Below are positions 18,465 through 18,990 of a stretch of 64,000 nt of DNA, piece after piece (position 1 is the first letter of the stretch; every line of letters begins with the position of its first letter). A model generated the notes under the pieces. It saw nothing but the letters and a program-made list of their open reading frames with translations, was not told the DNA's origin and did no database searches. Made by a program: the position numbers and the translations under genes. This DNA comes from a virus. The stretch is taken from the IMG/VR virus record IMGVR_UViG_3300027763_000034, positions 52,156-116,155 of that record. One strand, written 5' to 3'.

Positions 18465-18833
18465 ATGGGCGACAGAGCAAACTTTGGATTCAGAGATTCC
18501 AAGGAAAATATTGTATTTTTATATGGACATTGGGCAGGGCACCGAATGCTAGAGAATTTAGCGGACGCCGTGCAGATTGCACATCCACGTTGGAATGATG
18601 AAGCATATGCTACACGTATTGCTATCAGCCAAATGATTGGTGATGAGTGGGCTAGCGAAACAGGCTGGGGCATTAGTGTTAATCAATTGGCAGATAATGA
18701 ACACAAGGTCCCAATTATTGATTGGAAAAATAAAACGTTTACGTTAATGGAAGAAGACCTGCAGACTGTAGTATTTAGTACAACCTTGGATGCATTTGTG
18801 GCCAAGTATTGTAGTCAACTAAGTATGGTATAA
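18465..18833 (+). CDS. Hypothetical early protein
   Basis: MGDRAN...LYGHW.G...RW.D..YA.RI pattern. Confidence 0.7.
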   Translation: MGDRANFGFRDSKENIVFLYGHWAGHRMLENLADAVQIAHPRWNDEAYATRIAISQMIGDEWASETGWGISVNQLADNEHKVPIIDWKNKTFTLMEEDLQTVVFSTTLDAFVAKYCSQLSMV

Positions 18834-18839
18834 TTAATC

Positions 18840-18990
18840 TAGGACCTTGGTCCTGGTTTTAATACAGAAATGAAGTGGTGCGTCTAACTAGTCTACGGGC
18901 CAGGCGCTAAGTAAAGCGGTTTATTTCTTTCGTTGGAAATCAGCAGCCATATTCATTAACCCCCCAGCTTGATCTGGGGGGTATTTTTTT
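18840..18990 (+). ncRNA. Candidate ~150-nt structured small RNA with anti-leader loop
   Basis: TGgTATAAT at 18826-18834; multi-stem fold with a cUACGg tetraloop; terminator 18959-18990; no credible ORF. Confidence 0.7.

Follow-up and report, generated by a model that had tools for sequence, protein, structure and literature searches.

A conserved structured RNA in the early region of a lake-water phage displays a loop complementary to early-gene leaders

Introduction

Within the early block of an apparently virulent phage from lake water lies a stretch of roughly 150 bases that looks like a self-contained, structured RNA, and it raises the question of whether a single small RNA can act on many early mRNAs of the phage that encodes it. 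Proteins, namely sigma factors, polymerase modifiers and RegA-type repressors, are usually credited with temporal control in virulent phages, and to our knowledge few regulatory RNAs of actinobacterial phages are known. A first-pass annotation of the locus had proposed that the RNA exposes a loop antisense to a leader common to the early genes and thereby blocks ribosome binding on most early mRNAs, acting either as an early-to-late switch or as a superinfection barrier. Here, we ask which parts of this proposal are borne out by the structure, the conservation and the genomic distribution of the element, and how it compares with other accounts of the same RNA.

The window (the whole stretch of DNA analysed here, 64,000 nucleotides) comes from a viral record of 116,155 bp that was judged complete, of which it makes up the right-hand 64 kb. 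The DnaE-type polymerase of this phage is 58% identical to the enzyme of Streptomyces phages, and blastn against isolated phages returned no match. Neither a tyrosine nor a serine integrase was found in the genome, and no prophage copies turned up in the bacterial genomes searched. Lake water was the source of the RNA libraries that hold parts of the stretch. The host of this uncultured phage is probably an actinobacterium, to which the PafBC-type promoters and a probable leaderless mRNA at 17261, both described below, point. ARAGORN and Rfam place eight tRNA genes in the window; the tRNA-Asp gene (17083-17157, + strand) is within the early block and on the early strand, and the other seven are on the - strand.

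Results

The RNA element occupies window positions 18826-18990 on the + strand. The first-pass annotation was right about the location of its promoter, 5' hairpin, three-helix body and terminator and of the 8-11 nt complementarity. An extended -10 box of its own, TGGTATAAT (18826-18834, +), overlaps the last codons and the stop of the upstream ORF (18465-18833); as had been claimed, it is not accompanied by TGTCRG, the PafBC -26 element. A putative transcription start was assigned from the position of this box. The hairpin CUAGGAC-CUUG-GUCCUGG, followed by UUUU (18839-18856, +), may be either a 5' protective stem of the RNA or a weak terminator of the upstream gene. The body is a three-way junction closed by the stem P1, whose 5' strand (18869-18878, +) pairs with 18947-18957. 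The P2 arm (18880-18907, +) consists of a GCGUCU/AGGCGC stem, an asymmetric internal loop (CUA ... CAG) and an apical GUC-UACG-GGC hairpin, and the arm capped by c-UACG-g that had been described earlier reads at 18891-18900 (+). It is followed by the junction strand UAAGUAAAGCGG (18908-18919, +) and by the P3 hairpin AUUUC-UUUCGUUG-GAAAU (18923-18940, +), in which the seed CUUUCGUU lies at 18927-18934. The junction strand CAGCAG and the P1 3' strand CCAUAUUCAUU (together 18941-18957, +) complete the body, and a strong intrinsic terminator (18959-18990, +) with a 9-bp stem (18959-18982), seven G-C pairs and then seven U ends the element. The single-sequence fold has a z of -3.0. Apart from the end of the upstream ORF, no + strand ORF of at least 30 codons is present in 18834-18988, and neither ARAGORN nor the Rfam tRNA model called a tRNA or tmRNA cloverleaf at 18826-18990.

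Hundreds of related loci were retrieved through the flanking proteins, and the element was detected by blastn in 67 of them. As RNAalifold on the MAFFT alignment produced a spurious long-range helix, the structure (5' hairpin, P1, P2 with its apical hairpin, P3 and terminator) was set by hand and then tested. On 35 distinct sequences, 89.5% of cells were paired, compared with 35-51% in slid controls, and 17 pairs were changed on both sides, which was matched by 0 of 500 shuffles. With a covariance model built from this structure, the RNA was recovered at 72 of the 80 related phage loci, mostly 170-330 nt upstream of a homologue of P0001, which in this phage is the gene after the RNA. The 51 distinct hits of the model had 91% of cells paired and 350 double-change cells versus 122 in shuffles, figures that come from an alignment fitted to the covariance model and thus favour the structure. 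In the diverse alignment, changes on both sides affected 6 of 7 pairs in the 5' hairpin and 7 of 8 in the terminator. P1 also shows compensatory changes (for example, AUGAA/UUCAU to AUGAU/AUCAU), with its GG/CC pairs invariant. The P2 stem is 100% paired in the 51 distinct sequences, one pair occurring as GC, AU or CG and the next as UG, GU, CG or UA; its asymmetric internal loop is conserved and its apical loop variable. Invariant positions comprise GGUGC, CUA and (C/A)AG in P2, GCAGCC in the strand that runs from the junction into P1, and CUUUCGUU in the P3 loop. Furthermore, the first junction strand is near-invariant, as UAA(G/A/C)UAA(A/G)GC, in all family members, including variants that do not carry the anti-leader loop.

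Rfam cmscan at gathering thresholds gave no hit over 18700-19160. The best relaxed hit, mmgR, scored 24.7 bits against a threshold of 41, was mostly terminator-derived and was set aside. The RNA is a conserved, structured family without an Rfam entry, that is, a new family, and the covariance model, the pairing and the compensatory changes support the earlier view of it as a structured RNA, one that probably stands alone. A scan of bacterial genomes returned 10 matches, only two of which were real, on short, probably mis-binned contigs. Several other matches were discarded: a weak model hit in the related genome G005 is a tRNA plus a terminator, a second model hit in the phage's own genome is a terminator only, and a degenerate scaffold pattern applied to viral contigs returned mostly chance matches, so that filtering by the model was needed.

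Family members fall into two classes. Class A, which includes the RNA of this window, has a TGnTATAAT box, the 5' hairpin and the terminator; in class B the junction comes directly after the upstream stop codon, with a TATAAT-like box at best and with neither 5' hairpin nor terminator. Of the 51 distinct upstream regions, 34 keep TGnTATAAT at an unchanged distance, and the rest belong to class B. Because class B RNAs adjoin the upstream stop and have no evident promoter or terminator, they may be 3'-UTR-derived. Among near-identical RNAs, terminator modules are exchanged independently of the RNA body; comparison of L085:3372-3539 and L118:3372-3539 with window 18959-18990 shows that some of these RNAs carry a short C6/G6 terminator and others a long CCCCCUAG...CUAGGGGG hairpin. 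A box GCCCRCAAAAG after the terminator (window 18991-19040, +) is present in nearly all relatives, including the terminator-less ones. P0001 itself (19154-19927, +) encodes a DUF1281_C ferredoxin-like domain (Api92-like) with a Cys-rich tail, and over 200 related viral contigs carry the gene.

In the metatranscriptomes of four lake runs, contigs represent parts of 18787-18956 at a low depth of 2-8, like the flanking genes, and one of them spans the upstream gene into the RNA; 18978-19146 is not covered, and the contigs carry no end or strand information. This bridging contig, the class B arrangement and the usual location of the RNA between the same two genes would fit a cis-acting element, either a 3' UTR stabiliser or terminator-insulator of the upstream gene P0002 or a riboswitch-like leader of P0001, and a three-way junction followed by a terminator does resemble an aptamer. 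The details of the locus make such a role very improbable. The terminator has no alternative pairing to the body and is swapped freely among relatives, P0001 has a PafBC-type promoter of its own past the terminator, and in L073, L284, L321 and L363 the RNA lies elsewhere with its own promoter. A riboswitch or attenuator in particular was rejected, as there is no terminator-competing helix, the terminators are swapped, the downstream gene has its own promoter and no Rfam riboswitch matches the RNA.

Sixteen promoters of the form TGTCRG-N10-TAnnnT lie on the + strand at window positions 10273-20459. They are of the type bound by PafBC, whose consensus in mycobacteria is tGTCgg(N10)tA(N3)T, with a -26 element plus a -10 element and no -35 element (PMC8635444). 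Most of the sixteen also have the extended -10 TG. The presence of these promoters suggests that a host DNA-damage activator drives the phage early genes, and the promoter type of the RNA differs from that of its predicted targets. A probable leaderless mRNA is also found in this region (window 17232-17275, +), with an in-frame ATG at 17261, 7 nt past a -10 box. This arrangement is kept in relatives, and codons 2-4 of the mRNA (CCAACGAA) are complementary to the 3' part of the RNA loop (UUCGUUGG).

The antisense match reported by the first-pass annotation is exact. Loop stretch 18925-18935 is the perfect reverse complement of CAACGAAAGAA at 11561 and 11681, and the tag AACGAAAG occurs on the + strand at 10310, 11562, 11682, 12312, 14138, 15045, 16008, 17449 and 19138. 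Each copy of the tag lies about 20 nt past a TGTCRG-N10-TAnnnT promoter and 5-12 nt before a start codon, where it overlaps the SD, and 9 of the 16 early transcription units carry one just before the start codon. The predicted target sites, all on the + strand, are 10310-10317 (AACGAAAG) in the leader of ORF 10328; 11561-11571 and 11681-11691 (both CAACGAAAGAA, 11-nt perfect complements) in the leaders of ORFs 11591 and 11700; 12312-12319 before ORF 12328; 14138-14145 before ORF 14153; 15043-15053 (CCAACGAAAGG) before ORF 15063; 16008-16015 before ORF 16025, which encodes a DUF932 protein; 17449-17456 in an early-gene leader with an ATG about 11 nt downstream; and 19138-19145 in the leader of ORF 19154 (P0001), which directly follows the RNA in most relatives. 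Over both strands the window holds 10 matches to AACGAAAG, one of which is on the - strand inside the RNA, versus 1.79 expected. Elsewhere in the 116-kb genome the minus strand has just two more copies, neither of them leader-like, and the tag is absent from all other gene leaders. Candidate SDs of the non-early genes are mainly AAGGAG or GGAGG, and AAC precedes GAAAG in none of them.

When only Watson-Crick pairs were counted, the complement of the loop 8-mer was found in 8-9 of the 16 leaders. At least 5 leaders were reached by 19 of 5000 shuffles of the RNA body and by 22 of 5160 genomic 89-nt windows, and 9 leaders were reached by none of either set. Leaders such as CAACGAAAGGA could form 11 contiguous pairs with the loop plus its 5' stem strand. 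Hybrids between loop and leader scored -13 to -20 kcal/mol versus -6 to -12 kcal/mol for the anti-SD tail, for which we used an assumed actinobacterial 16S tail sequence. The leader sites are predicted to be open, at an opening cost of 1.7-2.2 kcal/mol. On the other hand, energy ranking does not single them out: in a genome-wide, accessibility-aware ranking of contiguous helices, the leader sites (net approximately -6 to -7 kcal/mol) were outranked by chance GC-rich sites. As the leaders are not at the top by energy, the case for them rests on multiplicity, position and conservation. Two further approaches were abandoned, namely helix counts allowing G-U pairs, which were not significant because U-rich shuffles match A/G-rich leaders too, and a naive duplexfold scan of the genome with a 32-nt query, which was uninformative.

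Pairing with the leaders would not have to be repressive. The duplex might instead protect the mRNA 5' ends from RNase E or J, direct RNase III processing or tune translation upward; the complementarity and the co-occurrence data given below apply equally to such outcomes, and the RNA lies within the early block in the orientation of the early genes and may be produced along with its targets. We regard this as improbable given where the pairing would fall. GAAAGG, the SD proper, falls inside the duplex and lies within 5-12 nt of the start codon, and in known sRNA cases a duplex over the SD near the start codon blocks initiation. Moreover, the leaders are short and predicted open, which leaves no inhibitory structure for the RNA to relieve.

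Conservation of the loop, on which the first-pass annotation had staked its proposal, is strict: CUUUCGUU is invariant while the P3 stem that presents it varies. The seed is identical in 51 of 51 distinct covariance-model hits. P3 stems range over 3-6 bp, U-rich bulges or a 22-nt loop, and the 8-mer is always unpaired. With a pattern blind to the loop, we obtained 81 distinct scaffold strings, 68 with CUUUCGUU; of the 13 without it, five are true family members and eight probably chance matches, which puts the seed in 68 of 73 distinct true family sequences. L114:2645-2817 is the sole family member with an altered seed, CUUUCGAU.

The tag is also widespread among relatives, being exact in 136 of 295 of their distinct PafBC-type leaders, and it tends to be found where the loop is found. 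In complete genomes with the loop, it occurs in 9/16 leaders of this phage (G000) and in 9/14 (G010), 6/17 (G009), 7/14 (G006), 8/16 (G008) and 9/17 (G007) leaders of five relatives; it occurs in 2/14 leaders of G003, which has no RNA, and in 1/13 of G001, which has the scaffold with a minimal P3. Leaders in genomes without the loop have AAAGAAAGG in place of AACGAAAG. Across 64 distinct 12-kb loci, the tag was present in 256 of 464 leaders (55%) with the loop versus 6 of 58 (10%) without it, the latter group being loci in which the RNA is absent or the scaffold has another loop. In a tree of P0001, which as one gene in mosaic phages is a weak guide, loop-less phages appear at no fewer than three places, each beside loop-bearing neighbours at ~50%: L276/L279/L349/L353 (tag in 5/28 leaders), L308/L321/L332 (0/25) and L284/L296 (1/4). 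Some loop-less phages keep CGAAAGG in the P0001 leader. Of the covariation between loop and leader envisaged in the first-pass annotation, the co-occurrence is seen, with a seed that never varies, and it could reflect linked inheritance of an early-region module.

Some scaffold variants present other loops. One subtype has the P3 loop AGUGUGG and the P2 loop ACCCUUUC(G); it has the motif CCCUUUCG not in P3 but in the P2 loop, and the tag is retained in its leaders. The anti-SD-like motif has moved to the P2 arm in this subtype. L057:2685-2831 has the P2 loop ACCCUUUCG with the P3 loop AGUGUGG. In the L022-type variant the P2 loop is ACCUUUCA, with no G opposite the C of the tag, and the tag is still present in 7/11 leaders. 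L284:7805-7952 has a G-rich P3 loop, CUGGGGGUGUU; L321:8243-8320 and L308:8091-8170 have a minimal P3, a conserved P2 loop GAUUGUCU and compensatory stem changes; and L363:2994-3059, from a more distant phage without the tag, has the P3 loop CCUCGAAAA. Because these loop-less variants are still under structural selection, the scaffold has a function of its own, one for which antisense pairing does not account, and the anti-leader loop is a dominant, non-universal add-on to it. The idea of a programmable scaffold was rejected, since the loops and junction strands of the variant RNAs have no repeated complementary sites in their phages.

These variants raise the possibility that the RNA acts mainly by binding a protein or ligand through its three-way-junction scaffold, the partner being of host or phage origin (e.g., a nuclease, a polymerase factor or a defence component) and the match between P3 loop and leaders being secondary or coincidental. 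Invariance is as strong in the junction strands and the P2 internal loop as in the seed, compensatory changes persist in L321, L308, L284 and L363 although their P3 differs, and the other loops and the junction strands meet no repeated targets. We nevertheless consider it unlikely that the scaffold is the main agent, as this would leave unexplained why the loop 8-mer is invariant in nearly all true family sequences, why it exactly complements a tag that is limited to early leaders, and why that tag is rare where the loop is missing. The candidate P0002 was rejected as an obligate partner because homologues of this upstream family are present in genomes without the RNA.

Discussion

We consider it about an even call that the RNA is a trans-acting antisense RNA that masks the SD region of the early mRNAs and so turns them off together; that the two pair in vivo, which way the effect runs and when it sets in are all inferred. 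According to this mechanism, host RNA polymerase would transcribe a ~150-nt RNA from the PafBC-independent extended -10 promoter, and the RNA would fold into a three-way junction closed by P1, with the apical loop of P3 displaying CUUUCGUU. This loop would pair with AACGAAAG(G/A) over 8-11 bp, depending on the leader. The paired element is the 5' half of an extended SD in the short leader common to PafBC-type early transcripts. Part of the loop, CUUUC, is similar to the 3' tail of the 16S rRNA of actinobacteria, so that RNA and ribosome would be direct competitors for the SD. Binding of the loop would keep the 30S subunit off and turn down early protein synthesis as a set, and the late genes, with AAGGAG or GGAGG sites and no tag, would be spared. 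Being structured and terminated, the RNA should outlast the mRNAs and accumulate, which would result in a delayed shut-off of, or a negative feedback on, the early programme. Of the two roles suggested in the first-pass annotation, a timer or shut-off of early genes within the infection cycle fits better than a superinfection barrier, because no integrase or lysogeny genes and no prophage copies were found.

Less probably, an RNA in place of a protein might be the master off-switch of the early programme in a family of virulent freshwater actinophages, with a modular scaffold that recruits a further partner and an exchangeable loop that in most members mimics part of the 16S anti-SD tail plus GUU; the loop could then mask a leader tag common to all PafBC-driven early transcripts and leave late genes untouched. 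Recruitment of such a partner by the scaffold would explain the loop-less variants.

If the antisense mechanism holds, a whole early regulon would be silenced by one small RNA by way of a common leader tag, and this RNA would be a simple, portable timer and a rare case of a regulatory RNA for actinobacterial phages. The link with PafBC suggests a scheme in which early genes are driven by the host DNA-damage activator and their output is then cancelled post-transcriptionally. In Actinobacteria, the tag and the loop could also be put to use as an orthogonal switch of translation. No database lists the RNA family that has this scaffold, and lake viromes contain hundreds of its loci, which makes it both new and abundant.

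Of the known systems, the nearest is c4, an antisense RNA of phages P1 and P7 with loops that base-pair to the RBS region of an mRNA of the same phage and block its translation (PMC12197685). Like c4 and the P4 CI RNA, the element described here is a phage-encoded structured RNA with a loop complementary to the RBS of the phage's own mRNAs. The c4 RNA acts on one operon (icd/ant), is an immunity factor of temperate phages of Proteobacteria and is processed from the transcript of its own operon. In contrast, the present RNA has a single seed for at least nine separate transcription units with a common leader; it comes with its own promoter-like box and a different fold, belongs to a phage without integrase and with a probable actinobacterial host, and gave no Rfam C4 hit by cmscan over 18700-19160, either at gathering thresholds or with E up to 10.

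A second likeness is to sRNAs of Gram-positive bacteria without Hfq, such as RsaE/RoxS, with C-rich loops, and the actinobacterial 6C RNA, in which a pyrimidine-rich seed in a loop pairs with the purine-rich SDs of several mRNAs. These RNAs are chromosomal and direct C-rich seeds at GGAG cores. The RNA of this phage shares with them a hairpin loop with a short pyrimidine-rich seed directed at several SD regions; unlike them, it is phage-borne, and its seed CUUUCGUU extends upstream of the SD, which would give it specificity for the phage tag. Finally, the RegA protein of phage T4 attaches to many early mRNAs at their initiation regions and, later in infection, stops their translation. The likeness to RegA is one of logic only, as the factor proposed here is an RNA that would act by base pairing.
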